DNA of 64,000 bases from a bacterium (GCA_963676395.1 OY781066.1:1-64000), one strand, 5' to 3'; shown: positions 4,097-37,252, numbered from the stretch's first letter. The notes: generated from the letters alone by a model not told the origin. Made by a program: numbers and translations.

Positions 4097-6175
4097 ATGA
4101 AAAAATTAACTATTGTATTGATACTTGCATTATTACTATTAAGCTCATGTACATTGAATATGTTTAAAAACCTAGCTTCACCTGACCATAAAATTAAAAT
4201 ATCAGTTGATACGAACAACAGAGGTGAGCTGATATATTCCGTTAAATATCAGAATGATATCGTTATCCATCCTTCGAAATTAGCTGATTTTGATTTTAAT
4301 GATAGTATCCCAAAAATCGGAAAAATGGAGATATATAAACGGAAGTATTTTTTACAAAGAGACGAAAAATGGGAAATGCCTTGGGGTGAACAGCGATGGG
4401 TAAGAGATGATTACAATGCCATGACAATATACCTAAGAGAAATTGATGCACCCTATAGACATTTAGAGGTCGAATTTAAAGCATTTAACGATGGTTTGGG
4501 GTTTAGGTATGTATTCCCGGAAGATTTTACAAATTATCAACTGACGATTTTAGATGAAAATACCGAATTTAACCTAAATGAGGATCACGAGGTATGGTGG
4601 ATCCCCGGTGATTGGGATATTTATGAACATTTGTACAAACACACGAACCTGTCTGATATAAATGCCTTGCAATACCGGAATCATAGCAGTTTAGCGCAAA
4701 CCTATATTCCTTATAATGCGGTCAATACGCCGGTAACCATGAAAACCGGCAATGGAAAATATTTATCATTTCATGAAGCAAATTTAACTAATTATCCGGG
4801 GATGACATTGAAAATTGATACACTTAATTTATCTATGACATCCGAATTGGTGGGAAATTCTCAGGATATAAAGGCCGTGATAGAAACACCTTTTAAAACT
4901 CCCTGGAGGACGATACAGATAGCAGACAGGGCCGGTGATCTCATTGAATCTACCATGATCCTGAATTTAAATGAGCCGGCTAAATTTGAAGTACCTTGGT
5001 TTAAGCCAACGAAATACATGGGTATTTGGTGGGATATGCATATTGGAACCAAAACCTGGGATTATGCCAGCGGTCGTCATGGCGCAACCACGGAATATGC
5101 TAAAAAATACATTAATTTTTGTGCCCGAAATGGTATTGGGGCACTACTCGTGGAAGGCTGGAATACGGGATGGGAACATTGGTTTGGAGATTTTAATAGA
5201 GAAGGTGTTTTTGACTTTGTAACTCCTTATCCCGATTACGACTTGGAAGAAGTGGTTCTATATGGTAAAGGTAAGGGTGTAGAGATCATTATGCATCATG
5301 AGACTTCTGCAGCTCCCCGTACGTATGCTCAGCAAATGGATACAGCTTATACTTTAATGAATGATCTTGGTATTTCAGCTGTAAAAACAGGTTATGTGGG
5401 GAAAATAATTCCTAAAGGTGAATATCATCACGGACAGTGGATGGTAAATCAATATCGTTTAGCCCTTGAAAAAGCGGCAGAACACAATATTGCTATCAAT
5501 GCACATGAACCGATTAAAGCAACAGGCATACGTCGGACCTATCCCAATGCAATTTCTCGCGAAGGATTACGCGGACAAGAATTTAATGCCTGGTCACCGG
5601 ATGGAGGCAATCCCCCCTCCCACCTACCTACTGTGGCTTTTACACGAATGTTGGCAGGGCCGATAGATTTCACTCCGGGTATTTTTAACATATCATTAGA
5701 GCCCTATAAGCCAAATAATCAGGTTAATACTACCCTGGCGCATCAATTGGCTTTATATGTCGTAATTTATTCACCAATTCAAATGGTCCCCGATCTCATA
5801 GAAAATTATGAAGGTCAACCTGCTTTTCAGTTTATTCGAGACGTGCCGGTTGATTGGAATAAAAGCATCGTACTTGATGGTGAGGTGGGTGAATTTGTAA
5901 CAATAGCTAGGCAAGAAAGGCACGAAAAAAGACAAAATTGGTTCCTGGGTAGCATTACAAATGAAGAGCCCCGAACAATAAACATCAAGTGTAATTTCTT
6001 GGGAAAAGGGAAAAAATATACTGCAACAATATATTCAGATACAGAAGACGCACACTGGAAAGATAATCCTACCGCTTATAAGATTGAAAAAAGAAGAGTA
6101 AATCATAATTCTACTTTAGAAGTTGATCTGGCCGCGGGAGGTGGCGTTGCAATATCTTTTATTATGGACAAATAA
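4097..6175 (+). CDS. Glycoside hydrolase family 97 (SusB-like alpha-glucosidase), lipoprotein
   Basis: Lipobox LSSC; KYMGIWW, LVEGWN, MHHETS, SREGLRGQE, FTRMLAGPIDFTPG. Confidence 0.92.
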   Translation: MKKLTIVLILALLLLSSCTLNMFKNLASPDHKIKISVDTNNRGELIYSVKYQNDIVIHPSKLADFDFNDSIPKIGKMEIYKRKYFLQRDEKWEMPWGEQRWVRDDYNAMTIYLREIDAPYRHLEVEFKAFNDGLGFRYVFPEDFTNYQLTILDENTEFNLNEDHEVWWIPGDWDIYEHLYKHTNLSDINALQYRNHSSLAQTYIPYNAVNTPVTMKTGNGKYLSFHEANLTNYPGMTLKIDTLNLSMTSELVGNSQDIKAVIETPFKTPWRTIQIADRAGDLIESTMILNLNEPAKFEVPWFKPTKYMGIWWDMHIGTKTWDYASGRHGATTEYAKKYINFCARNGIGALLVEGWNTGWEHWFGDFNREGVFDFVTPYPDYDLEEVVLYGKGKGVEIIMHHETSAAPRTYAQQMDTAYTLMNDLGISAVKTGYVGKIIPKGEYHHGQWMVNQYRLALEKAAEHNIAINAHEPIKATGIRRTYPNAISREGLRGQEFNAWSPDGGNPPSHLPTVAFTRMLAGPIDFTPGIFNISLEPYKPNNQVNTTLAHQLALYVVIYSPIQMVPDLIENYEGQPAFQFIRDVPVDWNKSIVLDGEVGEFVTIARQERHEKRQNWFLGSITNEEPRTINIKCNFLGKGKKYTATIYSDTEDAHWKDNPTAYKIEKRRVNHNSTLEVDLAAGGGVAISFIMDK

Positions 6176-7011: not shown

Positions 7012-7157
7012 TTAAACCCTTTCTTGATATCCGTGTCTTTTTGAATTCAAAACAATAATACATACTATTTAGGACTATTTCAAGTTCCAATAAATGTAAT
7101 GAATTTTTGGTATCTTGAATTTTATTGTGTATTATCGGCGGTAAAATAAGGAAAACT

Positions 7158-8051
7158 ATGCATATCGACTTGATTTATAACCCTAAGTCCGGGGGTGGAC
7201 GCGGAGAAAATTTAACTCCTATAATCATTAAAGCTCTCGAAGAAAAAGGACATACTCTAAATATACATCGAACAGAATACCACGATCATGCAACAGAGAT
7301 CACTCGACATTTAGATTTATCACAAAGTGATGTTGTTGCCAGTGTGGGTGGTGACGGAACAATGTATGAGGTATTAAACGGTTTATTAAAAAATAAAAAT
7401 AAAAAAAAGCCTGTTTTTGCCGTAATACCGGTTGGCACGGGAAATTCATTTTCACAAGATCTAAACATGCATCAGTGGAGAGATGGAGTTGTTGCTATTC
7501 TAGAGGCTAAAACCCGCCCGGTAGATGTCATGAAATTCACAACCGAAGGCGAGGATTATTATTCCATTAATTCCATATCGATCGGTCTGCCGACGGATGT
7601 TGGTATTAGCGGTAAAAAATATAAAAAACTTATGGGAAAGCATTCATATACTTTCTCGGCATTGATTGAGATCATGCGTTACAAACCACATCATACCATA
7701 CTGGAAGTTGACGGTGTAAAGCACGAGTACATGGGTGCGTTTACAAATTTTGCCAATACACGTTTATTTGGCGGTAATATGATCATTTCTCCCGATTCTG
7801 TTATGGATGATGGTGAAATAGAAGCTATTGTATTGACTGATGCGCCGAAAAAAGAAATTATAAAAGCCTTTCCCACCTTGTACAAAGGTGAGCATATTTC
7901 CAATCCTTATGTTAGAATCTACAAAGGCAAACATTTCAAAATTTCGGCCGATCCCATTAAAACAAGTAGCCCCGAAGGTGAAATATTTGGTGTAACGCCG
8001 CTAGAATTATTAGTTATGCCTAAGGCAGTTACGATGTTTTATAAGACTTAA
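7158..8051 (+). CDS. Diacylglycerol/lipid kinase (YegS/BmrU family)
   Basis: YNPKSG, GGDGT, PVGTGNSF motifs; start at ATG 7158. Confidence 0.9.
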   Translation: MHIDLIYNPKSGGGRGENLTPIIIKALEEKGHTLNIHRTEYHDHATEITRHLDLSQSDVVASVGGDGTMYEVLNGLLKNKNKKKPVFAVIPVGTGNSFSQDLNMHQWRDGVVAILEAKTRPVDVMKFTTEGEDYYSINSISIGLPTDVGISGKKYKKLMGKHSYTFSALIEIMRYKPHHTILEVDGVKHEYMGAFTNFANTRLFGGNMIISPDSVMDDGEIEAIVLTDAPKKEIIKAFPTLYKGEHISNPYVRIYKGKHFKISADPIKTSSPEGEIFGVTPLELLVMPKAVTMFYKT

Positions 8052-8172: not shown

Positions 8173-9348
8173 TTAAGCAAAGCCAGACTGATGATCTTCT
8201 ATGATTTTTCCGGATTTTATTACCTTTAATAAACGATCATTTTGATCAATAATGATCAAGTCTGCATCATATGTTTCTTTTATAAAGCCTTTTTTATTAT
8301 CTATACCCAACAGTCTGGCAGGATTTTCACTGGCGGTGCGAATACATTGCTCTAAACTTGCTCCGGAAAACTTTTTTAATCTTATCATAATCTCAAATAG
8401 CGACAATGTTGTCCCAATAAGACCCGAGCCATCGGAATAAAAGGCTGCACCATCTTTTGAGTGATATTTTTTCTTTCCAAAATCATATTCACCATCCGGT
8501 AAACCAATGCCTGAGATCCCATCGGTGATGGAGATAAGTCGCTCAATACCAAATACTTGATAAAAGTACTTAATCTCCTCTTCTTTTAAATGTACGCCAT
8601 CTGGAATGATCTGAACAAAAACATCCGAATCAATAATTGAATCAAGAGGATGGTCTTTATCTCTATTATATTTTCTCATTGCATTATTTAAATGAGTAAC
8701 GCATGTAATCCCCTCTTTAATCCCTTCTTGGGTAAATATAGGGTCAGCATCACTATGCCCCATTGATGATATATATTCTAAATCATATCCCATATCAATT
8801 ACATTATTTATCCAGGGAATTTCGGGCGCTAGGGTCAATAGTTTCAGTTTGCCTTTACATGCCAAAAGTATATTGTTTAGGTTTTCTTTGTTTGCTTCGG
8901 CAATGCACTCTGCGGGTATTCCACCTTTACGGATCAAATTGATGAACGGTCCTTCCAAGTGGATTCCAAGATTTTCCGCTTCATTTTCTCCGGGGATATG
9001 ATACGCAATACTTTTGAGATGTTCATTGTTATCGTTTTTATTGTAAAATGTTGTTGTGAGAAAGGAAGTCGTTCCCTTGAGACAAAGTGTCTCGGCCATA
9101 GTTTTCATGTCACCGTCTTTATTATCTGTCGGATTTGCACCACCGGCACCATGAACATGGATATCTATTAAGCCGGGCGCGACAATTGCACCTTTGGCGT
9201 CAAACAATAATTGACCTTCTTTTGGCACGAATGGTGTTATCTCAAGAATTTTTTCATTCCTAATAATAATATTGAACAAATCGTCGGGTTTATTATAGAG
9301 TCGGCAGTTTAAAATATAAGATTGCATATTAAAGTCCAATTCCTTCAC
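8173..9348 (-). CDS. nagA: N-acetylglucosamine-6-phosphate deacetylase
   Basis: PGLIDIHVHG, GIHLEGPF, TLAPE, GHSDA, THLNNAM, DGVH. Confidence 0.88.
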   Translation of the reverse strand: MKELDFNMQSYILNCRLYNKPDDLFNIIIRNEKILEITPFVPKEGQLLFDAKGAIVAPGLIDIHVHGAGGANPTDNKDGDMKTMAETLCLKGTTSFLTTTFYNKNDNNEHLKSIAYHIPGENEAENLGIHLEGPFINLIRKGGIPAECIAEANKENLNNILLACKGKLKLLTLAPEIPWINNVIDMGYDLEYISSMGHSDADPIFTQEGIKEGITCVTHLNNAMRKYNRDKDHPLDSIIDSDVFVQIIPDGVHLKEEEIKYFYQVFGIERLISITDGISGIGLPDGEYDFGKKKYHSKDGAAFYSDGSGLIGTTLSLFEIMIRLKKFSGASLEQCIRTASENPARLLGIDNKKGFIKETYDADLIIIDQNDRLLKVIKSGKIIEDHQSGFA

Positions 9349-9588: not shown

Positions 9589-10704
9589 ATGAACAAAAGA
9601 ATCATTGCTTTAGGGTTCTTCGTACTTGCGACATTGTTTTCATTCGCAATGGCAGATACGGATCAAGTGATATTTACTATTACAGTAGAGCAGAATACGC
9701 CAGACTGGTGTAACGTACAGTTCCCGACCGATACAATTGTCTCTGTTGGAGATTCAACGATCTTTTATGCGCAAGTATGGGAAGATGGCAAAACAAACGG
9801 TGAAGGTGAATTTACTGATATTAACGCTTGGATAGGATACAGCTCTTCAAACACAAATCCTTCAGGAAGCGGTTGGACCTGGGTTCCGGCCGACTATAAT
9901 GCTTCGGCCAGCTCGGAGTCTACCAATGGATACGCTAACGATGAATATATGGCCGAAATAGGCGTTTTGCTATCGGCGGGTACTTATTATGTCGCATCAA
10001 AATTCGCATTTGAAGGCGATACGTCAAATGTTGTTTACGGTGGATATAAATCCGGTGCAGGTCAAGAACATGGCTTATGGGACGGTGATTCCGTCGTATC
10101 TGCTCAAATAACAGTCAATGCCGTCAATCACGCTCCCGTATTAGCGGCGATCACCAATAAAAGTGTAGATGAAGACGGCTCACTTTTATTTACCGTATCA
10201 GCAAGCGATTCGGATGACGACACCCTTACATATTCTATTTTCTCAAATGACCAATCCGATGATATTAGCGTTACGATTTCCAACGACACGCTTACAATTG
10301 TTCCGAACCCTAACTTTTTTACAAGCATAGATGCAAATATTATCGTCAAAGTGATAGACGGGCATGGCGGTGAAGATACCACCTCATTTAAGTTGAAAAT
10401 CAATTCAGTCAATGACGCTCCCGTAATTACGGCGGTAGGAACTCAAAGCGTTACTGAAGGTAACGAATTGACCGTAAACTTTACCGCTACCGATATTGAT
10501 CATAGCGGTGCTTCATTATCCTGGTCCGAAAATGGCAAGCCGGTTGGTTCGGTATTTACCGATAACGGTGACGGTACCGCAAAGTTGGTATGGACACCCG
10601 ATTACACTCAATCGGGAAATTATGAAGATATTGAGATCACCGTTGATGATGGAGTATCCGTTGCAAAAATGGTGATAAAAACCGGAAAGAACTCAAATCG
10701 ATAA
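9589..10704 (+). CDS. Secreted protein: N-terminal orphan beta-strand, amylopullulanase-associated-like beta domain, one complete and one C-terminally atypical cadherin-like domain
   Basis: Signal peptide ending AMA; YAQVW..G.T / WTWVPADY / NDEY domain; NHAP and NDAP cadherin-like repeat starts. Confidence 0.75.
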   Translation: MNKRIIALGFFVLATLFSFAMADTDQVIFTITVEQNTPDWCNVQFPTDTIVSVGDSTIFYAQVWEDGKTNGEGEFTDINAWIGYSSSNTNPSGSGWTWVPADYNASASSESTNGYANDEYMAEIGVLLSAGTYYVASKFAFEGDTSNVVYGGYKSGAGQEHGLWDGDSVVSAQITVNAVNHAPVLAAITNKSVDEDGSLLFTVSASDSDDDTLTYSIFSNDQSDDISVTISNDTLTIVPNPNFFTSIDANIIVKVIDGHGGEDTTSFKLKINSVNDAPVITAVGTQSVTEGNELTVNFTATDIDHSGASLSWSENGKPVGSVFTDNGDGTAKLVWTPDYTQSGNYEDIEITVDDGVSVAKMVIKTGKNSNR

Positions 10705-10717
10705 TATTCGGTGATCT

Positions 10718-11512
10718 ATGCTAAGAAAGAAAAATAAAATATTCATCATCCTTTGCTTTGTTTTCGGGTCACTTTGGGCCGAAACGGATATGATTAGCTT
10801 CAATATCATTGTGAATAATAATCCTATTGATCATTGCGCTTTGCTAAATGTAAAAGATAGCATCATTGCAAGTGATAATCCCGTGATCGTCAAGTGTTTG
10901 GTAAAAGATATCGGTGTCACAGACCAAAACGGTGCAAATTCATTAATATCAGCAGAATTAGGGATAAATCTAAATAACGCTTCTCCTAATGAGTCAGGTT
11001 GGTTGTGGTATCCGGCGACATATTTATCTGAAGATAATGGTGGTGAAACATATTCAATGACCGTTCCGCTTGATCAGATACCCGAAAACGGTCAATTTTA
11101 TCTGCTATCACGTTTTTCTTTGCCTGATAGCCAGTATGTATACGGTGCTTGGGATTCAAATCGTAATTTTGGTGGCAAGTGGGATGGCAATTATTTTACA
11201 GCGCCATTAATTCATTATGTACGTGAAAGCGCTATCGAAGAGATACCAACAGATTTTGCATTGCATGCACCCTACCCTAATCCATTTAATCCCGGAACGA
11301 CCATAAACTTTGACATTGCCGAGAATACTCAGTTAGTCTTGAATGTTTATGATCTTAATGGTAAAAAAGTGCGCGAACTTTGGAATGGCCCCTGTGAAGC
11401 AGGATATCAGAGTCAATACATTGATATGTCCAGTTTTGCTTCCGGCATTTATATTGTGCAAATGATCACCCCTAATTACCGCAATGTTCACAAAATATTG
11501 CTTGTGAAGTAA
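10718..11512 (+). CDS. Secreted protein with N-terminal orphan beta-strand, paralogous beta domain and T9SS-type/FlgD-Ig C-terminal domain
   Basis: Signal peptide ending LWA; GWLWYPATY and YVYGAW...GKWDG match the domain of the 9589 protein; PYPNPFNP...SGIYIV...KILLVK tail. Confidence 0.8.
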   Translation: MLRKKNKIFIILCFVFGSLWAETDMISFNIIVNNNPIDHCALLNVKDSIIASDNPVIVKCLVKDIGVTDQNGANSLISAELGINLNNASPNESGWLWYPATYLSEDNGGETYSMTVPLDQIPENGQFYLLSRFSLPDSQYVYGAWDSNRNFGGKWDGNYFTAPLIHYVRESAIEEIPTDFALHAPYPNPFNPGTTINFDIAENTQLVLNVYDLNGKKVRELWNGPCEAGYQSQYIDMSSFASGIYIVQMITPNYRNVHKILLVK

Positions 11513-11522
11513 GGAGGCTATA

Positions 11523-12548
11523 ATGAAAAAGATATTTATAATGCTTTTTATTGTACTTTCCTTTGCTTTATCTGCCTTCGGCGAAAGCTATTACGTGCGC
11601 GGAACACACAATGGATGGGGTACCGACGGTGGTGAATTAAGGGCTAAAAACATTGGTGGAAGCGCTTATTATGGCTTGACAATGGCAGTCAGCGATTCGG
11701 GTACATTTAAAATTGCCGATAGTGTCTGGGCAAATCAATGGTCAACATCTGTAAGCTCCTATGATGCCATTACAAGCATGAGTTGGAACAGCGAAAATGC
11801 CTACTGGCTTTCACCTACTCAAGATTATGTTCATATATCAGTTCATGATCCCGATTTACATACGGGTTCAAGCTTATCAGTAGGTGTCATGGCTTTAAGT
11901 TCCGATACCCTAAGTATAATAGACTCGCTCAAAGATAACAGCTCAGAGAGCGCCGTAGAGAATGATACGGTTACTGTAACACTGTATACCTCTCAAACAC
12001 TGTTAGGTGAAGAAAATTTATATATTCGTTATACCGAAGACAATTGGAGTACATCCAAAGCCGTTAAAGCAAGTGGTACGGGAACGACATACACGGCAGA
12101 TATCGTATCTGAAATTCGCGATACGCTGATGTATTATGCATTTACGTCAACTTTAGATTGGGAAACTTCTGCTGACTTACGCAATAACACGGATCTATTG
12201 ACTTTGAAAGCTAATACTAATGGCGGAGATAATTACTCCTATGTAATAAATGGAAATACCGCTCCTGTTATTGCGCCTGTCGAAGATCAGACGATCAAAG
12301 AAGGAAATACGCTCGATCTGACCATTACGGCCACCGATGTCGATGATGATGCTTTATCATGGTCCGCCACAGGATTTGGTACAGGGATCGATACGGCAAC
12401 GGTCGATGGAAACTTTACGATAAGTTTCACTCCCGATTACGATGAAGCCGGGCGAGTTGATACGATAACGGTTAGCGTTTCCGATGGCAGAAGCGAAACG
12501 ACGAGCGCTATTGCGGTTGGTCGGATGAAAATAAACCTAAATCGATAA
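11523..12548 (+). CDS. Secreted protein with putative starch-binding-like modules and a C-terminal cadherin-like domain
   Basis: Signal peptide; YYVRGTHNGW (SusE/F-like CBM start); LYIRYTEDNW (CBM-like); NTAP...EGNTL...ATDVDDD...PDYDEAG...VSDG. Confidence 0.7.
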   Translation: MKKIFIMLFIVLSFALSAFGESYYVRGTHNGWGTDGGELRAKNIGGSAYYGLTMAVSDSGTFKIADSVWANQWSTSVSSYDAITSMSWNSENAYWLSPTQDYVHISVHDPDLHTGSSLSVGVMALSSDTLSIIDSLKDNSSESAVENDTVTVTLYTSQTLLGEENLYIRYTEDNWSTSKAVKASGTGTTYTADIVSEIRDTLMYYAFTSTLDWETSADLRNNTDLLTLKANTNGGDNYSYVINGNTAPVIAPVEDQTIKEGNTLDLTITATDVDDDALSWSATGFGTGIDTATVDGNFTISFTPDYDEAGRVDTITVSVSDGRSETTSAIAVGRMKINLNR

Positions 12549-12792: not shown

Positions 12793-12852
12793 GACAAGAT
12801 AAAAAAGATAAAAAATCGACCTCCATTGCACGCCGCGAAGGAGGTTTTTTTT
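12755..12852 (+). promoter_or_regulatory. Transcription attenuator of the ilv operon
   Basis: Terminator ACCTCC...GGAGGT plus T-run (12819-12852); antiterminator GCGTGCAAT (12782-12790) is exactly complementary to ATTGCACGC (12825-12833). Confidence 0.85.
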
Positions 12853-12964: not shown

Positions 12965-14632
12965 TTGAGATCAGACAACGTTAAAAAAGGTTTCGAAAGA
13001 GCACCTCACAGATCCTTACTCCATGCTTGTGGCGTAAAGCATGAAGACATGCATAAGCCCTTTATTGTGGTAGTATCTTCGCATACCGATATTGTACCCG
13101 GTCATGTAAATCTTGATAAAACTGCCGAATTGGTAAAAGAAGAGATCATTAAAGCAGGTGGCGTCCCTTTTGTTTTTAACTCTATTGCGGTTTGCGATGG
13201 TATTGCTATGGGGCATAACGGTATGCGCTATTCACTACTTTCCCGTGAAATTATTGCTGATTCTGTAGAAACTATGATACGCGCTCATCAGTTTGACGGT
13301 ATGGTGTGTATTCCCAACTGCGATAAGATCGTTCCGGGTATGTTGATGGCATCGGTCAGACTTAATATCCCCACCATTTTTGTTTCCGGTGGTCCTATGA
13401 AAGCCGGAAAAATGAAAGATGGCTCAGTTTCGGATCTTATTACGGTTTTTGAAGGTGTGGGAGCTTATAAAGAAGGTAATATTACCGAAGAAGAGCTTAC
13501 GGAAATAGAACAGTGCTCTTGTCCCTCTTGGGGCTCTTGCTCAGGCATGTTCACCGCTAATTCCATGAATTGCCTCTGCGAAGCTATTGGCATCGCGCTT
13601 CCCGGTAATGGAAGCATTCTTGCAATAGATCCAAAACGTGAAGAACTCTTTAAAACAGCCGCTAAACGCATTCTTGAAATGGTAGATGAAGATCTTAAGG
13701 CAAAAGATATCATCACGAAAGAAGCCATAGATAATGCCATGGCACTTGATATGGCAATGGGCGGTTCAAGCAATACCGTACTTCATACTCTGGCGATTTG
13801 CTCCGAAGCAAAGATCGATTATGATATGTCACGTATGGATGAAATTTCAAAAAAAACACCGAACATTTGCAAGGTCTCCCCTTCTTCTGCGTATCATATG
13901 GAAGACGTGGATGCTGCAGGTGGTATCTCGGCCATTCTCAAAGAGATATCGAAATTGGGTGTTATCAATACAAACTGTAAAACTGTCACTGGAAAAACGC
14001 TAGGCGAAAATATTGCGAATGCCGATGTAAAGGATGATGCGGTTATCCATTCTTGTGATAATGCATATTCGCAATCCGGAGGATTGAGCGTGCTTAAGGG
14101 TAACCTGGCACTCGAAGGCTCTGTGGTCAAATCGGCCGGAGTAGCTCCCTCAATGATGGTATTTGAAGGACCGGCTGTGATCTTTGAATCTCAAGAAGAT
14201 GCCTGTGACGGTATTCTTGAAGGAAAGGTTAAAGCCGGAGATGTTGTTGTGATCCGCTACGAAGGGCCTAAAGGTGGTCCGGGTATGCAGGAAATGCTCT
14301 CCCCCACATCCTATATTATGGGACGTGGTCTGGGTGAATCGGTTGCATTGATCACTGACGGTCGCTTTTCGGGTGGAACCCGCGGCGCTTGTATAGGCCA
14401 CATAGCTCCCGAAGCAGCAGCAGGAGGAACGATTGGAATACTCAAGGACGGTGACATTATCTCCATTGATATTCCGGCAAACAAACTAGAGGTTAAGCTC
14501 AGCGATGAAGAGATCGCAAGCCGTAAGGTCGGCTGGACGCCGAATCCTCCACGTATTGACTATGGAGCGCTCGGTCGCTATGCTGTAATGGCACAGTCGG
14601 CATCTAAAGGTGCGGTTACAAATATTAAATAA
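12965..14632 (+). CDS. ilvD: Dihydroxy-acid dehydratase
   Basis: [42 protein letters not shown] start after AGGAG. Confidence 0.97.
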
Positions 14633-20953: not shown

Positions 20954-21281
20954 ATATAAAAAGGCGCGTCATTCGCGCCTTTTTATATTCTATATTTCAA
21001 TAAATAATTTAATCGTATAATAATCTATCATACTGTATACAATGTGTTTACATCAATATTGGTCTATTATAATATAATTAAATTATTCTTGTAATTATTA
21101 TAAATACTATTTATGTTATCTTAACAAAATAATAAATATGGTCTTACCTATAAGGAATACTGCATTAACAGCATATAGCAAATTGCATTATAAACATTAA
21201 GTACTTACCTGTTAACTGTGAAGTATTTTTCCCTTGATTTAAATATTGCATTGCAATTAATTAAAACAAATGTGAAAGGAA
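20954..21281 (+). repeat. ~328-bp non-coding direct repeat, copy 1 (terminator + promoter region + RBS)
   Basis: Manual alignment to 24443-24769 gives about 21 substitutions and 1 indel; begins with GGCGCG..CGCGCC terminator, ends TGAAAGGAA. Confidence 0.95.
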
Positions 21282-21286
21282 ATGTC

Positions 21287-24200
21287 ATGATTAAACGAAT
21301 AACAATACTAATATTTCTATTTTTAGTTACTATTACGGTTCTACTAGCCGATGTGACTGAAAATGAGTTTTATAATGCTTTGAATAGTTCAACTAATAAT
21401 GAAATTGTTTTTGATAGCACAACTACGGCAGTTCATTATTTTACACGTTCAGATTCAATTCATATGTCAACGTCTGGGTTGACACTTACACTGAATTTCG
21501 ACTTATCATCTACAGTAGCAACGGAGCTGCATATTGAGAATCTCAAATTATCGGGATATAATAAAGTAATATTCAATATTAATCGAAAAACTAAAATTGT
21601 ATTAGATAATTGTAAATTCAAACTAAAATATGGGGTTTTATTCAACTTTAACGATAGAGAATATCTCTACCCTGCTAATCTGGAAGAAACTCAAATATCA
21701 ATTGAAAATTGTGATTTTATTTGGGATGAAACTCTATATACCGGATTAAATGCAAAACAACTTTATTTCGAAGTAGAGTCAGGTATTGCAAATTCGGGTG
21801 ATTATCGTTTAAGAAATGTTATAATTGATAGTTGTAATTTTGAGTATACTAATACCACGAATTCACTGACACAATGGCTAAATGCTATTACATTTTTTAG
21901 AGCAAATGAAAATGTATCGTTTTCAAATATTACAATTTCAAATAATAGTATTACTTACGCAGGTATAGACAGAGCCAGAACAAGAGCAATTGCGATCTTT
22001 AATATTGATGGCAGTGCAGATGCTAGTGATTTTATTGATGAAAGCGCTTCCAACCACTATTATAATATTAATCATGATATTAATATTTTGAATAATTATC
22101 TGGAAACAGATTCTGAATGCCCTGAACAAGCAGTTTTCGTTCAAGGGCCTTACAAAGATGTTAATGTTAACGGGAATGAAATGTATGGCTTTGGACGTTT
22201 TATGCCCGATAACCCAAGTAGTCCAACTAAATACTATAACTCATTTCCAGTTTGTATGTATGGTGCAAGATCTTATGATGATTATTCAGATAATGTAAAC
22301 AATGTTGAAATTAAAAATAATATTTTAACAACGATATCATCTGGTATTATTGCAAATTCTTCAAATATTTGCGTGGATTCTAATGAAGTTAGGTTTCTAC
22401 CACTTACAAATTATTGGGAAAACGTTCAAACAATTCCGATAACCAGAAATAGAGTTGCTATATCTGTTAGAACAGGCGATGAATTACATCCAGAACAGCA
22501 AATTGAAAATATGAATATTAGATGTAATGAAATTTATTGTAATGAAATTTCCGGAGCAACTGGGATAATGGTAACAGGAAAGGATTTCAATGTAAGTCAT
22601 AATACAATTTTCGGGCCAAATAGTTGGGGAATAATGTATTGGGGAAATGGCGGAAATATTAACCAAGGTATCGGTTCATCTTCTATTTGTAATAACTCAG
22701 TTGATTTTGGAAACCAAGCTTATAATGTATTAAATAATAATTCAGAAGGGTTTGATTATTTTTTAGATAACAATTTTTTAACATTTTCCGGTATCAACTT
22801 TTACAGATCATCTCATACGCCAATTATTCCTTATAGTAATGAAATTTTAACAATATCTGATAATGCCGTTTATTGTGATGGGACAATTGATCCGGTAGTA
22901 TTTTTTAATTCTTCTACGAATCCGCAGATTACATGTAATATTACCAATAATATTTCCGGTGTCCTCCCCTACGATACCAGCACGACACAATTAAATGCCA
23001 GCTATATCCATGACGAGCTTGAAACGACCGGCGATGTGGATGGTGACGGATTATCCGATATGATTTATATTTATCGATATAATACAACCTTGTATGTCCT
23101 AACCAAGTTCAATAATGGTGATGGCACCTGGACGGATGTAAACGTCAGCACCCCTTATGGCACCATTGTGGACAGTTACCCGATCAATACAGGTGATTTC
23201 AACGGAGATGGGAAGATGGATATCGTCTTTACCTATTATTCGTCATCCAGAGTTTATATCTCCATGCTATTGTCGGATGGTGACGGGACATGGACGCGTT
23301 ATTATAAATACTATACCGGTTATGGCTCGGAGATATTTGACGGGTCCATTGTGATCGGTGATGCATCGAACGATGGATGTGATGATATTATATTTATCTA
23401 CAGCTATATGGGTGATTTTTCCATCGCTACCACCGTTTCGAGAACAAGTGGCGGGACATGGAGTAAGTATGAAGAAATGATCATGGATGCACCCGATCCG
23501 GAAGTATATGATGCCATTCCCGGTGATTTCAACGGAGATGGTGATATTGATTTTGCTTTTGCTCATGATCATAATAGTAAATTGAACATCACGCTTTTCA
23601 CATCTAATGGAGACAGGACTTGGTCGTGGACTTATCATGAATTTAGCAGTTATGGTTCATATGCCTATGGTGATAGGTTGGTTGTCGGGGATGTCTCCGG
23701 TGACGGTTGGGACGATTTGGTATTTATATATCGTTTAAGCGGCGAGTTAAAGATCTTGTCGATCTGGAAAGCCAGCACCGGCTGGGGGTCTTGTTTACAG
23801 ACACATACTGATGGAACAAATGTGGATGTTAATCCTGTCTTATCCGGTGATTTCAATGGCGATGATTTATTGGATTTTGCGTTCTGGGGTTATGATTGGA
23901 GTGAAAACGGATTGAATGTCCGTTGGAGAAATTCTAATGGAGACGGTACCTGGGGTGCCTTATATCAAATCTTCCCCAATGATCCTGAAGTAAGCTATGT
24001 ACCGTATGCTGCTAATTTTGATTCAGACGATAGAGCGGATATCTTGTTTACATACCAGAATAGCAGCAACATGATGAATTACAACTTAAAGACATCTTCG
24101 GCAATGGTAGCTTCATTCAGTAAACGACTATCCAATGAGAGTGAAGAAACACACATCGCCAAAAGCTATGAGTTAAGCCAGAATTATCCCAATCCATTCA

Positions 24201-24424
24201 ATCCGAGTACAACAATACGCTATTCATTGAAAGAAAACGGTAAAGTCAAACTATCAGTTTTTAATTTACAAGGTCGTAAAGTTGCACAATTGGTGAATGC
24301 AGCACAATCCATGGGAACCTATGAGCTAACATGGGATGCTTCCTCTTTGCCTTCGGGTATTTATATCTATCGACTGCAGGCCGGTGAGTTTGTGGATACA
24401 AAGAAGATGACACTATTGAAATAA
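21287..24424 (+). CDS. Secreted modular protein: parallel beta-helix domain, FG-GAP/VCBS propeller, T9SS-type C-terminal domain
   Basis: Start MIKRITIL after AAAGGA; Asn-rich I.I.NN repeats; multiple GDFNGDG..D repeats; QNYPNPFNP...SGIYIY...KKMTLLK. Confidence 0.85.
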   Translation: MIKRITILIFLFLVTITVLLADVTENEFYNALNSSTNNEIVFDSTTTAVHYFTRSDSIHMSTSGLTLTLNFDLSSTVATELHIENLKLSGYNKVIFNINRKTKIVLDNCKFKLKYGVLFNFNDREYLYPANLEETQISIENCDFIWDETLYTGLNAKQLYFEVESGIANSGDYRLRNVIIDSCNFEYTNTTNSLTQWLNAITFFRANENVSFSNITISNNSITYAGIDRARTRAIAIFNIDGSADASDFIDESASNHYYNINHDINILNNYLETDSECPEQAVFVQGPYKDVNVNGNEMYGFGRFMPDNPSSPTKYYNSFPVCMYGARSYDDYSDNVNNVEIKNNILTTISSGIIANSSNICVDSNEVRFLPLTNYWENVQTIPITRNRVAISVRTGDELHPEQQIENMNIRCNEIYCNEISGATGIMVTGKDFNVSHNTIFGPNSWGIMYWGNGGNINQGIGSSSICNNSVDFGNQAYNVLNNNSEGFDYFLDNNFLTFSGINFYRSSHTPIIPYSNEILTISDNAVYCDGTIDPVVFFNSSTNPQITCNITNNISGVLPYDTSTTQLNASYIHDELETTGDVDGDGLSDMIYIYRYNTTLYVLTKFNNGDGTWTDVNVSTPYGTIVDSYPINTGDFNGDGKMDIVFTYYSSSRVYISMLLSDGDGTWTRYYKYYTGYGSEIFDGSIVIGDASNDGCDDIIFIYSYMGDFSIATTVSRTSGGTWSKYEEMIMDAPDPEVYDAIPGDFNGDGDIDFAFAHDHNSKLNITLFTSNGDRTWSWTYHEFSSYGSYAYGDRLVVGDVSGDGWDDLVFIYRLSGELKILSIWKASTGWGSCLQTHTDGTNVDVNPVLSGDFNGDDLLDFAFWGYDWSENGLNVRWRNSNGDGTWGALYQIFPNDPEVSYVPYAANFDSDDRADILFTYQNSSNMMNYNLKTSSAMVASFSKRLSNESEETHIAKSYELSQNYPNPFNPSTTIRYSLKENGKVKLSVFNLQGRKVAQLVNAAQSMGTYELTWDASSLPSGIYIYRLQAGEFVDTKKMTLLK

Positions 24425-24442
24425 GTAAATATTATAAAAATG

Positions 24443-24769
24443 ATATAAAAAGGCGCGAAATTCGCGCCTTTTATACTTTATATTTCAATAATTAATTTAA
24501 TCGCATAATAATCTATCATACTGTATACAATGTGTTTACATCAATATTAGTCTATTATAATATAATTAAATTATTCTTGTATGTATTATAAATACTATTT
24601 ATGTTATTTTAACAAAATAATAAATATGGTCTTACCAATGAGAAATACTGCATTAACAGAAGATAGCAAATTGCATTATAAACATTAAGCACTTACCTGT
24701 TAACAGTAAAGTATTTTTCCCTTGATTTAAATATTGCATTGTAATTAATTAAAACAAACATGAAAGGAA
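24443..24769 (+). repeat. ~327-bp non-coding direct repeat, copy 2
   Basis: About 93% identical to 20954-21281 by manual count. Confidence 0.95.
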
Positions 24770-24774
24770 TTTTA

Positions 24775-27700
24775 ATGAAACGTCTTCAACGATTGAGTAC
24801 AGTTGCATTTACTATTTTAGTATTATTTACCTCAATACTCTTAGGTGCTAACGTTGTAAATTATGAAGTAGAAGCAAACACCGATAGCACAAAGCATTTT
24901 TTATTAAATGGTGATCCATTCTTCCCAATTGGGTGGTATGGGGGGCCTGGATATGAAAACAATTTCAATAGAAATGATCGTATCGATCATAAATATGATC
25001 CAATTGACGATAAAGACGATATTATAGGTGACGAAAATTTTCTTTTTAGCTTAATTAATTTTAAAAATTTTGGTTCAAATACAATCTTTCTTTATGAATG
25101 TAATAGAGGAATGAATTCTAAAAGACTCGGAAACATGACAGAAAATTTTAGTGATATCACTAATTGTGAGCCAACAGGCTGGCAAAGAGCACTTGAAATT
25201 ATTGATGATGCCGGTTTAAAAGCAATTGTCGAAATTGGTTTTAATACTGTAAGAAGAAATTATTGGAGAGAATGGATGGGAAGTGCAAGTAGCGCCATAT
25301 ATAGAAATATATGGCTTGATCCAGCTGAAACCCGAGTCAATACTTATGACCAAGTTATAGATTATGATTCATCGACAGATACAGAGATTCAAATACTAAT
25401 TGATGAATTAGATGTAGTTATTGGTGATACTCTAATCCCACATTCTTACGAAGACTCTGATAGAAGCGCAGCAATTAATAAATACTTGCAATACTTATCA
25501 ACTGATCCAGCCGTATTTTTATGGAGCACCTATGATGAACCGTCCGATACAGTTGGCTATAGTGTTTTCAGTGATAATTCAAGATTTACATTTGAAGCTA
25601 TAAAAAACAGAATGATAAAAGCAAACACAGCAATTGAAAACTATTACACCAACCCAGCAACTAATTACATTCCAGTTATGCCAGTTTTTAGAGTTTACCC
25701 AGATGATTCCGACCCAATTAAATACATTTATGAAAGCATAGAGGAAGGTGCTTGTAAATATATTTCTCTTGACTGGTACCCTGTTTGGTCTCATGAAGAT
25801 AAATCGGCGGAACTTATACCCAATCAAGTCTTACCGGCAATAGAAATTGCAAAGCATTTCTCCAATGCTGGTCCATTTATTTATGTTGCTCAAGGGCATG
25901 AGAACGAACCATCTGACTCTACACATTATCTAACACTACCATCTGAGAAAAATTTAAGATATATGACGTATTCCCCAATTATTCATGGAGCCAGAGGAAT
26001 AATGTTTTATAAATACTACAACAATACTTTAAGATGTAGAGATAGAGTTCACGCTATGATTGCTGAAATTACGGGAACTAGATACAGCTCCTACAACAAC
26101 AATAACATAAATTTAACAAGTGTAATTATAAACGGACAGACCCCCAATGATCCGGATTTTTTGCAGGTAGTTAATCGGGATACCGTTAAGGATAATAATG
26201 ATATTATTAATTTTATGAATAATACCAATAACTATCCCCAGATACCTGTTATAACACTATTTGATATTAATTATTTAGTGAAAGAAAGAAATGGTTATTA
26301 CTATCTGTTTATTTCAAATGACTCTAAATATAGTAAAACAGCAAAACTATTTTCAAAAGAAATTTCATACGGAAATTTTAAGGAAATTACCAAAAGTGGA
26401 CTTGGTAGTGAAAAAAAAATCAACCATGGTAAATTTTCAATAACTTTGGAAAGTTGTGAAGCAAAAGTATTTAAAATTGAAAAACTTGATATAACAAATG
26501 CCTACGATATAGCATGTTTAACTGCTGAAGATGACTCCCCAAATTATAACAATGTCCATATTATGAGGCCATGTAGCACATCAACTCCTTCGCTAAAGGA
26601 CAAAAACAACTCAACTGTCTCAAATCCGTATAATTCAAGTTCAATATGGACAAATTGGAATGATCTCGCTGATGATAATTTAGGTTTTAATGATGAGGTA
26701 GATTTTGCATCAAGTGGTGATTTTAATAATGATGGACTTGATGATATAGCTCTATTTGCTAACAATAGATTATATCTACTTAACAATGATGATGATTATT
26801 TTAATATTGACAATTCTAACGAAATTGAAATCACAGAAGACATTCTAGTAAGTAATTCATATATTTCATTTTGCGCTGAAATTGACATGATATCTGGAGA
26901 TTTCGATGCAGATGGAATAGATGAAGTATGTATTATCGAAAATGCCACATTAGGGTTTGATATAAAATTAATAAATATTGATGAATATTCTTGCAGTAAA
27001 ATAGCTAGCAGAACTTCAGAGCGAGGTTTATTTTGTAATTTATATTTTTCAGCTAGTGGAGATTTTGATGCTAACGGACAAGATGATATTATTTTATTTT
27101 ATAAAAAAGGATCTACTAATTATGTGAAAGTATTTTCATTAAATGAAAATGACATCTTCGAAGAAATTAGCACATTTAACAAAACAACAACAATAAATTA
27201 CGATGCCATTGAATATTTAGAAGCCGGTGATATGAATAACGATGGTTACTCTGATTTTGTTTTATTGTACGATCAAGGAAATTCAGATGACTGGCAAAGA
27301 GTTCTAGTCTTTGAATCCGATGGTGATAATTTCCCTCTACTAAATTCTCCAAATATTTTAGTTGATGCGAATTGGCATGTTGTATCTAGTACAACTTTTA
27401 ATTTTGATGATGTTACTTCAATGGTTGTAGCAGATTTAACTGGAGATGCCAATGATGATATCCTAGTAACCTATAACTACAATGGTAATAATCAAAAATT
27501 CATTGTATACGAAAACGATAGCACTGGAACTTGTTTTAGATATGGCTCAACATTTGATCCAAATACTAAATGTTGGGGTAATTATTATAGCAGTACTTAT
27601 GATTTATCTAATCAGTATTTCGTTCTCCCAGGTCGCTTTATGTATAAACCAACTCAGGGATTATATAAAGATATATCCAACGATGAAGAAATTGATGTAT

Positions 27701-27966
27701 CCTATAAATTTAATTTAAAACAGAATTACCCTAATCCATTCAACCCAAGCACAACATTCGAATATGAGATACCAAACAGCTCTCATGTCATGTTGAATGT
27801 GTATGACATGAACGGGCGCTTAGTAGAAAAACTAGTTAATAAACATCAACAGGCTGGACAATATCAGGTAAAATGGGATGCTTCACACTTAAGCTCTGGC
27901 ATGTACATTTATAGAATTATCTCCGGTGACAATACCGATGTAAAAAAATGTATGCTCATTAAATAA
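24775..27966 (+). CDS. Secreted modular protein: glycoside-hydrolase-like TIM barrel, FG-GAP repeats, T9SS-type C-terminal domain
   Basis: NGDPFFPIGWY, WSTYDEP, LDWYPV, IIHGARGIMFY; SGDFNNDG repeats; QNYPNPFNP. Confidence 0.8.
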   Translation: MKRLQRLSTVAFTILVLFTSILLGANVVNYEVEANTDSTKHFLLNGDPFFPIGWYGGPGYENNFNRNDRIDHKYDPIDDKDDIIGDENFLFSLINFKNFGSNTIFLYECNRGMNSKRLGNMTENFSDITNCEPTGWQRALEIIDDAGLKAIVEIGFNTVRRNYWREWMGSASSAIYRNIWLDPAETRVNTYDQVIDYDSSTDTEIQILIDELDVVIGDTLIPHSYEDSDRSAAINKYLQYLSTDPAVFLWSTYDEPSDTVGYSVFSDNSRFTFEAIKNRMIKANTAIENYYTNPATNYIPVMPVFRVYPDDSDPIKYIYESIEEGACKYISLDWYPVWSHEDKSAELIPNQVLPAIEIAKHFSNAGPFIYVAQGHENEPSDSTHYLTLPSEKNLRYMTYSPIIHGARGIMFYKYYNNTLRCRDRVHAMIAEITGTRYSSYNNNNINLTSVIINGQTPNDPDFLQVVNRDTVKDNNDIINFMNNTNNYPQIPVITLFDINYLVKERNGYYYLFISNDSKYSKTAKLFSKEISYGNFKEITKSGLGSEKKINHGKFSITLESCEAKVFKIEKLDITNAYDIACLTAEDDSPNYNNVHIMRPCSTSTPSLKDKNNSTVSNPYNSSSIWTNWNDLADDNLGFNDEVDFASSGDFNNDGLDDIALFANNRLYLLNNDDDYFNIDNSNEIEITEDILVSNSYISFCAEIDMISGDFDADGIDEVCIIENATLGFDIKLINIDEYSCSKIASRTSERGLFCNLYFSASGDFDANGQDDIILFYKKGSTNYVKVFSLNENDIFEEISTFNKTTTINYDAIEYLEAGDMNNDGYSDFVLLYDQGNSDDWQRVLVFESDGDNFPLLNSPNILVDANWHVVSSTTFNFDDVTSMVVADLTGDANDDILVTYNYNGNNQKFIVYENDSTGTCFRYGSTFDPNTKCWGNYYSSTYDLSNQYFVLPGRFMYKPTQGLYKDISNDEEIDVSYKFNLKQNYPNPFNPSTTFEYEIPNSSHVMLNVYDMNGRLVEKLVNKHQQAGQYQVKWDASHLSSGMYIYRIISGDNTDVKKCMLIK

Positions 27967-28924: not shown

Positions 28925-30220
28925 ATGAAGAAAGTATCAGTATTTTTTGTATTGCTTTTATTGACCTTGTCTCTATGTTTTGCCGCAGCAAATTCAAAAG
29001 TTCTTGATGTCCGCGGCGCCTCCGTATATTACAAAGTGGATAATAATGCAAATGGTGATTTGAATCTAGGTACTGACTATACAATTGAAGCTTGGATCTA
29101 TGTAGAGCCCGGTGAAAGAACAAGCAATGAAAGAATTTTATACTCTAATGATTGGCAAATTTATATACCCTCGGGTTCTGGGGGTACGGGTACCGTCATT
29201 GTTAGAACAAGCGGAGCTTTTATGCCCGCCGGTCAAATAGATATGACGGTTAACGAAGATGAATGGACACATATTTGCATCATGGGAAATAGTGCCGGGT
29301 GGACAAATAACTATGTAAATGGTGCATCAGTTGGCAATGGTGGAACTTCGTCCATTGTATCTTCGGACTATTTATCAATAGGCTCAATCGTTTGGTCCGG
29401 CACATATAATTTCAATGGTGCAATCGATGAAATTCGTCTTTCAAATGTAAATCGATACGGTAGATGGAGTTTTTCTATTGACAAGAATGATCCTCCGCAC
29501 ACGAATGATGCGAATACAATGCTATTATATGATTTTGATGATAGCGCTGTCCCTCCTGCAAATAAATCCAGCAAAGTTTATACCACTACGAACTATGGTG
29601 TAAGTGCTGCTAATTACAAAGATTGGAATGATGCATCTTTTAGCGGGGAATTACCATTACCCATAGAGCTGGCTCAGTTCACTGCCAAATCAATTGACGG
29701 CTTAGTCCATTTAAATTGGGAAACAGCATCAGAAAAGAATAACGCTCAATTTATAGTTTATCGAAATGGTATTGCATTGGTAAGTATTGAAGGTGCCGGA
29801 ACCAGTACTGAAACAAATTTATATTCATATATTGACGATACTGTTGTTCCGGGAGTTACATACACTTATGTACTGGCTGATATCAATTATGCCAACCAAG
29901 AAACCCGCCATGAATCTAAAGCCGTACAGGTTTTGGTGGATGCGCCTGCAATAGAAGCAAACTATGTATTGGGAGACGCCTACCCTAACCCGTTTAATCC
30001 TATAACTATCGTACCTTTGGAATTAAAAGAATCAGCTCAGGTACATGTAAGTCTGTTTGATATGAATGGTAAAAGGGTTAAGGAAATATTAAATTCTAAT
30101 CTTAATAAGGGTTCGTACGATCTTCATGTAAATTCCGATAACTTATCAAGTGGCATTTATTTAATAAAAGCTGTCATCAATCATTCTGTTGTAGTTCAGA
30201 AGATAACATTTAAAAAATAG
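28925..30220 (+). CDS. Secreted LamG-like jellyroll protein with LPIEL linker and T9SS-type C-terminal domain
   Basis: YTIEAWIY, WTHI, FNGAIDEIRLSN..RY, LPIELAQF, WETASEKNN, AYPNPFNP. Confidence 0.85.
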   Translation: MKKVSVFFVLLLLTLSLCFAAANSKVLDVRGASVYYKVDNNANGDLNLGTDYTIEAWIYVEPGERTSNERILYSNDWQIYIPSGSGGTGTVIVRTSGAFMPAGQIDMTVNEDEWTHICIMGNSAGWTNNYVNGASVGNGGTSSIVSSDYLSIGSIVWSGTYNFNGAIDEIRLSNVNRYGRWSFSIDKNDPPHTNDANTMLLYDFDDSAVPPANKSSKVYTTTNYGVSAANYKDWNDASFSGELPLPIELAQFTAKSIDGLVHLNWETASEKNNAQFIVYRNGIALVSIEGAGTSTETNLYSYIDDTVVPGVTYTYVLADINYANQETRHESKAVQVLVDAPAIEANYVLGDAYPNPFNPITIVPLELKESAQVHVSLFDMNGKRVKEILNSNLNKGSYDLHVNSDNLSSGIYLIKAVINHSVVVQKITFKK

Positions 30221-37184: not shown

Positions 37185-37252
37185 CATTAAATTTCGCCCT
37201 CGACAAGCCCCTTTATTTATTGTATTTTTAATCAAAATTGAGGGGCGACGAA

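Follow-up and report, generated by a model that had tools for sequence, protein, structure and literature searches.

Three tandem plus-strand genes in the stretch OY781066.1:1-64000, here called A, B and C, encode the pieces of what is probably a split cell-surface adhesin, rejoined by strand complementation on a type IX secretion system (T9SS) anchor. The whole stretch of 64,000 nt is here referred to as the window. It forms the beginning of one 2.34 Mb contig, a one-contig genome with an estimated completeness of 95%, and A, B and C are secreted proteins of this Marinimicrobia-type (Marinimicrobia/Neomarinimicrobiota) genome. We favour, with somewhat better than even confidence, an assembly of the form C-A-B or C-(A)n-B, held together by strands that are donated from one protein to the next. 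A chain C-A-B is likely, and the adhesin would probably bind alpha-glucans. The three open reading frames (ORFs) are separated by intergenic gaps of 13 nt (A/B) and 10 nt (B/C), and each of them opens with a hydrophobic signal-peptide-like N-terminus. All coordinates below are positions of the 64,000-nt stretch, and residue numbers are those of the precursor proteins.

9589..10704, + strand: gene A, putative connector/shaft subunit with donor strand and acceptor domain (ORF, 371 aa)
10718..11512, + strand: gene B, putative anchor subunit (ORF, 264 aa)
11523..12548, + strand: gene C, putative distal tip subunit, acceptor only (ORF, 341 aa)

The division into a tip (C, acceptor), a connector (A, both donor and acceptor) and an anchor (B, donor and sorting domain) is supported, and it fits every locus examined. 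In the mechanism that we propose, B would be the base, consisting of a 14-residue amphipathic strand, a spacer domain (in this clade) and a T9SS sorting domain. The tails of A and C would cap their own last domains in the periplasm. The strand of B is predicted to enter the G slot of the last domain of A and would push out the tail of A, and the N-terminal strand of A would enter the last domain of C or of another A. The C-terminal sorting domain (CTD) of B would then bring A and C, which possess no CTD, to the T9SS for joint export, and PorU would cut off the CTD and tie B to anionic lipopolysaccharide (LPS). In most species the mature anchor would thus be little more than a donor strand on a lipid-linked sugar chain.

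B-type proteins in related loci

The evidence from comparison of genomes centres on B and its relatives. Two segments of B are of importance here:

10781..10822, + strand: predicted N-terminal donor strand of B, residues 22-35, wholly in the confident interface with the terminal domain of A
11273..11509, + strand: T9SS type A C-terminal sorting domain of B, residues 186-264 (Pfam, NCBIfam)

In B of the window, Por_Secre_tail (PF18962) matches residues 186-261 with 43.8 bits (cut-off 27) and TIGR04183 matches with 39.2 bits (cut-off 23). A first-pass annotation of this stretch had assigned a surface-sorting CTD to B, and these matches bear it out.

Two samples of related loci were compared. The first contains 12 more distant Neomarinimicrobiota loci (L002-L013). 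The second was taken from 401 genomes drawn evenly across the phylum, and as it overlaps the collections of the first, the two are not independent. An A-like gene is present in 22 of the 401 genomes, and the 24 loci of this sample gave 22 distinct places, after removal of one locus cut inside A and one duplicate. A B-type gene was found directly 3' of the A homologue in 12/12 loci of the first sample and in 22/22 of the second, and the spacing between the two genes is 3-14 nt in most loci. We also collected 36 full-length homologues of A, named Marinimicrobia in the source records, and the N-terminal strand is kept in all of them (36/36): it opens with Thr/Ser-Asp, after which hydrophobic residues alternate. 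The related loci agree with the pattern of donor and acceptor that the first-pass annotation wanted to see kept in homologous operons.

The 22 downstream B-type genes fall into two types. First, there are 3 long forms with an N-domain, namely that of the window and two others. Second, 19 are short forms of 129-144 aa, in which a signal peptide is followed by the strand motif, a linker of about 15 residues and Por_Secre_tail, and nothing else. The short B proteins of L002-L013 (130-136 residues) have the same make-up of signal peptide, strand, linker and T9SS CTD. Their strand motif begins with a small or acidic residue, continues with Asp-Thr or Thr-Asp and then runs in alternating hydrophobic residues, and in the one short B checked with Pfam the CTD takes up residues 53-127 of 131 aa. 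One short B was recovered only by raw translation, as no start codon had been called, and another is truncated at a contig end. A short B is therefore a strand plus a T9SS signal without evident function of its own, and it is strictly paired with A, which argues that the strand is functional and that A is its partner. These data support the view that the N-terminal strand is a separate, conserved module that acts in trans.

A genome-wide regular-expression search for a signal peptide followed by the strand motif gave 5 matches, of which the credible ones are A and B only. MAFFT aligned the short B proteins so that their strand fell under the final strand of the long-B N-domain; by its motif, the strand fits the N-terminal strand better, and this alignment was not used for folding.

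The A-B locus is patchy; among 21 further genomes from the genus of the window, only 1 has it. Because of this patchiness, both among these congeners and in the phylum sample (22/401), the distribution suggests an accessory, possibly mobile, surface locus.

Predicted complex of B with A

The comparative evidence points to B and A as partners, so this pair was chosen for complex prediction. The parts of A concerned are as follows:

10126..10404, + strand: internal cadherin-like domain of A, residues 180-272, a full domain that has a long G strand (Pfam; strand 262-272 modelled)
10417..10656, + strand: terminal cadherin-like domain of A up to the V.DG turn, residues 277-356, predicted acceptor (Cadherin_4; hhalign)
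10657..10701, + strand: C-terminal tail of A, residues 357-371, a short, predicted self-capping strand and a polar end with a basic last residue

Residues 178-371 of A (both cadherin-like domains and the tail) were modelled with residues 22-185 of B (strand and N-domain, no CTD), with our own alignments. The interface score ipSAE was 0.66, 0.66 and 0.68 in three runs, and 0.00, 0.01 and 0.00 in the controls, in which B was swapped for two unrelated proteins and A for one unrelated protein. Solved complexes attain the ipSAE mark used in 116 of 157 cases and mismatched pairs in 2 of 215; these counts are a rough guide here because own alignments were used. The three runs have at least 96% of their contacts in common, with a partner pLDDT (predicted local model confidence) of at least 80.

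All of B 22-35 lies in the confident interface, together with a few other residues of B (67, 76, 135-138). On the side of A, the interface contains residues 275-280 and 282-292 (linker, A and A' strands), 294, 296, 300, 318, 335, 337-339 and 341-356; among them, 294, 296 and 300 are inward-facing residues of strand B of the last domain, and the residues listed after them include the E-F loop and the whole F strand. In the model, B 22-35 runs parallel to the A' strand (A 285-290), with A286 next to B30 and A289 next to B33, and antiparallel to the F strand (A 341-348), where A345 meets B29-32, A348 meets B29-30 and A341 meets B32. It also touches the core residues 294, 296 and 335 of A. The tail of A (357-371) is outside the confident interface, in which residues not named are uncertain, not absent. 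The model supports the view that B 22-35 would occupy the canonical G-strand slot of A's last domain, both in place and in direction. Insertion of the donor strand into this domain, which the first-pass annotation had proposed, was thus reproduced by the prediction for A and B (ipSAE 0.66 versus 0.01 in the highest control).

Domains, predicted donor strand and tail of protein A

The N-terminal half of A is made up of three segments:

9589..9654, + strand: signal peptide of A, residues 1-22, hydrophobic, with an Ala-x-Ala-type end, read from the sequence; helix in the model
9655..9696, + strand: predicted N-terminal donor strand of A, residues 23-36, from family conservation; homologous to B 22-35
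9703..10122, + strand: N-domain of A, residues 39-178, a beta-sandwich repeat domain, from homology to the N-domain of B; pLDDT mostly above 85

The signal peptide was called by eye. As quoted in the first-pass annotation, A 23-36 and B 22-35 start right after the signal peptides. It had moreover compared both with the last strand of the intact repeat inside A. We compared a profile of the N-terminal strand, derived from the 36-sequence family, with the rest of A, and the top match was indeed G strand 263-276 (score 16.8, z 3.7), while the runner-up, an ordinary F strand, came near with 15.3. Judged from these profiles, the likeness between N-strand and G strand in A is real and top-ranked, and modestly above the generic likeness between beta-strands.

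Pfam recognises Big_9 (62.4 bits) and Cadherin_5 (45.9 bits) in the internal domain of A (180-267, full profile length), followed by Cadherin_4 (52.1 bits) at 268-330. When the terminal domain was compared with the internal one by hhalign, the probability was 98.2, and the match covers columns 1-84 only: it breaks off at the V.DG turn, short of the G strand. An atypical tail after this turn had been claimed for both A and C; for A the homology does end there, while in the monomer models the tail itself folds as a short G strand (358-363).

We obtained two AlphaFold2 monomer models of A, one of the full protein and one of the mature protein, from the 36-sequence alignment, and the mean pLDDT was 87.1 in each. 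Residues 21-39 are unpaired in both models (block pLDDT 61-81). In these models the N-strand is thus not integral to the first domain of its own protein; an integral strand would have told against the earlier proposal. The last 6-7 residues of A have pLDDT below 50. A Foldseek search with the whole model of A gave generic cadherin and Ig chains only, the top ones being protocadherin ectodomains with probability 1.00.

Points against strand exchange

Several results weigh against rejoining by strand exchange. First, the acceptor is not an open groove in either monomer model: residues 358-363 in the tail of A fold as a short G strand (block pLDDT 86-89), and the tail completes the fold by itself. 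As the acceptor is a complete, self-capped fold in the monomers, strand exchange would have to displace the tail. Second, the support from complex prediction comes from one pair and one program, and a pass supports binding and does not show it. Furthermore, the alignment of B used there included rows of the A family, and the score may partly be a memory of donor-strand pilin complexes in the PDB. Third, no signal of covariation was found. The likeness between the A and B strands of the same species does not exceed that of random pairs; it was matched by 1868 of 20000 shuffles for 21 loci and by 1857 of 20000 for 9 representatives. A size swap between the strand Phe (residue 29) and its pocket (296, 333, 350) is seen in the window clade and L091, and not in L101-L104. 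C has the same residue as A at 20 of 41 aligned interface positions versus 14 of 38 elsewhere, and the same skew appears against the non-acceptor internal domain of A (16/39 interface versus 8/40 elsewhere); as far as these alignments tell, the interface residues of A and C are no more specifically conserved than general fold residues. Fourth, A and C are without a known route across the outer membrane, and none of the matches listed by our literature searches (here and below with supplements excluded) reports hitch-hiking through the T9SS.

Some of these points would suit three independent secreted glycan-binding proteins, in which the strand is the protein's own edge strand, a linker or a spacer before the CTD, and the predicted complex is a false positive. 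The terminal domain of A is complete by itself in the monomer models, the co-evolution tests gave no signal, and the complex test does let through 2 of 215 mismatched pairs. Moreover, in multi-domain relatives the N-domain always comes after a strand of the previous domain, and the strand kept in A and B could be a harmless leftover of this arrangement. However, a short B without function of its own, which keeps its motif and is the next gene after A in 19 of 22 loci, does not fit such independence, nor does a strand that is unpaired in both monomer models. The three complex controls, including B against an unrelated protein, did not exceed 0.01, and independent A and C proteins would be trapped in the periplasm, as they have no CTD and the genome has no secretin. 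We consider three independent proteins rather improbable, and continue with the split adhesin rejoined on a T9SS anchor.

Proposed split-adhesin origin

Proteins that combine tandem cadherin-like domains and a CTD in one chain do exist (P0072, P0075, P0079, P0084 and P0096). The short B of L006 aligns with the last 114 residues of P0079 (E 6e-22), and the alignment starts at the first donor residue and goes through to the C-terminus of the short B. P0079 is a single-chain cadherin-like T9SS cargo, and the matched stretch consists of the last strand of the preceding domain, the linker and the CTD. The short B of L006 therefore corresponds to this end of an unsplit protein, with last strand, linker and CTD. 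A second pair of a short B and a single-chain protein aligned from the linker onward only. On this alignment evidence, the A-B-C system looks like a single-chain T9SS adhesin that was cut immediately ahead of a domain's last strand. With such an origin, the donor would be expected to look like a G strand plus inter-domain linker, and the upstream piece to stop at the turn.

Proposed export and anchoring by the T9SS

Profile searches of the genome recovered the PorU family (613 bits) and the SprA family (562 bits), both over cut-off, and 77 ORFs with a T9SS CTD are encoded in its 2.34 Mb. Among the three proteins, B is the only CTD carrier, and neither A nor C has a match to Por_Secre_tail, TIGR04183 or CHU_C. 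A profile search detected no secretin in the genome. Because A and C have no sorting domain and there is no secretin, their passage through the outer membrane is unexplained unless they ride with B. In parts of the literature that bear on this step, PorU is stated to remove the T9SS CTD and to join the cargo to anionic LPS (a passage of PMC10202324), and the T9SS is stated to transport folded proteins (a passage of PMC9251779).

The genome also contains no usher (PF00577) and no PapD-like chaperone (PF00345), although the same profiles were matched in the E. coli control, and no member of the FimA family (PF06321); likewise, no such Pfam match is found in A, B or C. None of the three proteins possesses a Cys at the end of its signal peptide, and hence none has a lipobox.

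The terminal domain and tail of A and C might instead be a divergent T9SS signal, with the N-strand serving another purpose, e.g. recognition by a periplasmic factor. T9SS signals are described as Ig-like sandwiches in a passage of PMC4804311, MAFFT set the last strand of the CTD under the tail of A, and most of the 36 A-family tails finish with Arg or Lys, a basic final residue like that of CTDs. The profile comparison decides otherwise, since the terminal domain of A matches the CTD alignment with a probability of 3.3% versus 98.2% for the internal cadherin-like domain. The lack of a Por_Secre_tail or CHU_C match in A and C also counts against a divergent signal, which would leave the short B proteins unexplained. 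We judge it very unlikely. A cryptic CTD in A and C, to which the MAFFT coincidence had pointed, was rejected on the same hhalign result.

Protein C, putative sugar binding and possible length of the chain

Protein C can be divided into two regions:

11583..12242, + strand: N-terminal region of C, residues 21-240, starch/glycogen-binding-module-like (weak Pfam CBM53)
12255..12545, + strand: terminal cadherin-like domain and tail of C, residues 245-341 (Pfam Big_9), homologous to the acceptor and tail of A

C starts straight with a domain resembling carbohydrate-binding modules (CBM) and is without an N-terminal strand comparable to those of A and B, just as the first-pass annotation had it. 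The CBM53 match of this region (E 0.0015) is below cut-off. Its look-alikes in the ESM Atlas (0.91-0.92) carry CBM_20, CBM_48 or AMPK1_CBM on 12-39% of members, which is a lead only. The terminal domain matches Big_9 at 245-329 with 39.9 bits, and C and A 211-371 share 34% identity over 166 residues (E 2e-14). We found 7 full-length relatives of C, and some of the related loci have a C-like gene after B.

Glycoside hydrolase genes lie nearby. In four related loci (L006, L008, L010 and L013), a T9SS-CTD protein of about 770-960 aa is encoded directly upstream of A, and Pfam identified an alpha-amylase (GH13 alpha-amylase-type) catalytic domain and a CTD in those of L006 and L010. A glycoside hydrolase of family GH97 lies 3.4 kb upstream of A in the window, and a functional link between it and A-B-C is possible:

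4097..6175, + strand: GH97 glycoside hydrolase gene, upstream context (Pfam Glyco_hydro_97, 322 bits)

As C weakly resembles starch/glycogen modules, and an amylase gene in relatives and a GH97 gene in the window lie upstream of A, we infer that the A-B-C assembly is a surface stalk for alpha-glucan capture.

The loci L002, L004, L005, L007-L009 and L013 have no C-like gene, and in them a gene for a T9SS cargo of 390-690 aa follows the short B. These cargo proteins have a variable N-terminal region without family assignment and a conserved middle part before the CTD. Such a cargo may replace C as the functional partner.

We further considered how many copies of A a chain would contain. Five genomes without an adjacent C (86-95% complete) were checked; no C-like gene was found elsewhere in 5/5, and the A strand is kept. 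A strand kept in genomes that have yielded no C-like acceptor is a hint of A-A contacts there, and the one hint of polymerisation of A. A one-to-one tether or export adaptor is a different arrangement of the same pieces: a fixed three-piece chain, or an A-B pair where C is absent, with the A strand idle or bound elsewhere, and no polymer of A. The B-A pair alone has support, and the tight order of A then B, with the short gaps of most loci, suggests a fixed stoichiometry; an origin from a split adhesin requires no polymer either. The kept A strand is hard to reconcile with it, since in the five genomes only another A is left as acceptor, and the A and B strands carry the same motif. Such a tether is a minority possibility in our estimation. 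A new class of fibre we likewise put forward only tentatively. In it, signal-less subunits joined by donor strands would ride the T9SS on B, whose LPS-linked base would in most species, after sortase processing, be a peptide of about 20-25 residues, the donor strand itself; A would polymerise to variable length and C cap the fibre with its glucan-binding modules. The term "filament" may overstate a possible three-piece chain, and the split adhesin rejoined on B accommodates either length.

The N-domain shared by A and B

The N-domain stands between the strand and the remainder of A and B, and in B it occupies the following position:

10826..11227, + strand: N-domain of B, about residues 37-170, homologous to the N-domain of A

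The N-terminal regions of A and B share 28% identity over 165 residues (E 2e-15), and the domain is missing from most relatives of B. Its further relatives were drawn from loci L014-L079 and proteins P0122-P0270. The domain is widespread and without a Pfam family; it starts with Asp-Trp-Cys-Asn-x-Gln-x-Pro and ends with Gly-Gly-Phe-Trp-Asp-Gly and a strand. Giant T9SS proteins of Bacteroidota, Ignavibacteria and others contain up to 28 copies of it in tandem, often right before the CTD, and one protein of 4592 aa has 28 matched stretches. Look-alikes in the ESM Atlas are clusters without names.

In the tandem arrays, a unit extends from the Asp-Trp-Cys-Asn motif to the final strand, and the first copies in P0126 and P0150 begin at this motif without a preceding strand. 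The strand of A and B sits upstream of the N-domain, at the place that in multi-domain relatives is taken by the final strand of the domain before. A role of the N-strand as the first strand of its own shared domain was rejected in view of the monomer models, the boundaries of the tandem repeats and the short B proteins.

Genomic context of the locus

By eye, the product of 8173-9348 (- strand), upstream of A, resembles an N-acetylglucosamine-6-phosphate deacetylase-like amidohydrolase, and that of 7125-8051, also upstream of A, a diacylglycerol/lipid kinase-like protein. A GC-rich inverted repeat followed by eight T lies at 12818-12852, between C and an ilvD-like gene (12965-14632). It could be the end of the A-B-C operon or part of an ilv leader. 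A consensus scan did not list it, perhaps owing to its long loop, and the scan for promoters and terminators gave a site number no higher than in shuffles. A T9SS CTD was detected with our own hidden Markov model in four further ORFs of the window (21218-24424, 24760-27966, 28925-30220 and 37238-38335), and two adjacent ones, of 1068 aa each, are possibly tandem paralogues.

Comparison with known systems

Literature searches found no published T9SS system that uses donor-strand complementation, exchange, swap or augmentation among the matches listed, and no literature joining donor-strand complementation with cadherin-like domains. What was found on the T9SS and donor strands concerns type V pili or consists of reviews alone, and the literature on the T9SS and Marinimicrobia was unrelated. 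We therefore compared A-B-C with five kinds of known structures.

In chaperone-usher pili, an N-terminal extension fills the Ig-like G-strand slot of the next subunit, antiparallel to F; the tip adhesin is acceptor only, the shaft subunit is both and the terminator is donor only. A-B-C is like these pili (type 1, P, Caf1/Saf) in its G-slot donor strand and its division of subunits. However, it has no gene for an usher or PapD-like chaperone, and its predicted acceptor is cadherin-like/Big_9. Moreover, chaperone-usher pili cap their subunits with a chaperone strand and end on an usher-bound terminator, whereas here the cap would be the protein's own tail and the base a T9SS cargo.

Type V pilins are lipoproteins from which a gingipain cuts off the capping strand, and their donor strand is C-terminal. 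The type V pili of Bacteroidota belong to the same wider bacterial group, and they too have a dedicated anchor subunit and a self-capping strand. Unlike them, A-B-C has no lipobox Cys and no FimA family member, its donor is N-terminal and its anchor carries a T9SS CTD. Passages of PMC8512630 and PMC4789730 describe type V pili (FimA/Mfa1, with anchors FimB/Mfa2) as polymerising by strand exchange onto an anchor after the capping strand leaves. As modelled, the self-capped acceptor of A resembles type V pilins more closely than chaperone-usher pilins.

In TasA of Bacillus, archaeal threads, bundling pili and cannulae, a single kind of subunit with another fold forms a homopolymer, and none of them is known to be linked to the T9SS. 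A-B-C differs from such chaperone-free fibres in its three specialised subunits and its base that could be anchored covalently. Self-assembly of chaperone-free fibres by N-terminal donor strands is described in a part of bioRxiv 10.1101/2024.12.30.630787.

The same domains stand in one chain in T9SS surface adhesins that combine tandem cadherin-like/Ig-like repeats with a type A CTD. In A-B-C, by contrast, they are spread over three genes, the cuts lie before the last strand of a domain and that strand moves to the downstream protein. Classical cadherins swap the A* strand symmetrically between like domains in their EC1 dimers. They are like A-B-C in that a cadherin-type sandwich takes the N-terminal strand of a partner, but here a G-type strand would be given one way to a different protein.

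If the reading of A, B and C as a rejoined split adhesin is true, it would be a third bacterial route to donor-strand surface structures, beside chaperone-usher and type V pili, and the first case found of CTD-less proteins that rely on a T9SS cargo for surface display. Non-covalent complexes could then be displayed, and perhaps also exported, by the T9SS. A natural split-domain tag would be formed by a strand of about 14 residues and its acceptor domain, and the short B suggests that it works as a minimal surface anchor. The mounting of polysaccharide-binding proteins on the surface of streamlined marine Marinimicrobia would also be explained. In summary, the mechanism assigned to A-B-C, donor-strand complementation, is a known one, and the system is outside the chaperone-usher, type V, TasA and archaeal families. 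It would differ from them in the cadherin-like acceptor with a built-in cap, the T9SS-borne anchor and the making of specialised pieces from a split adhesin.

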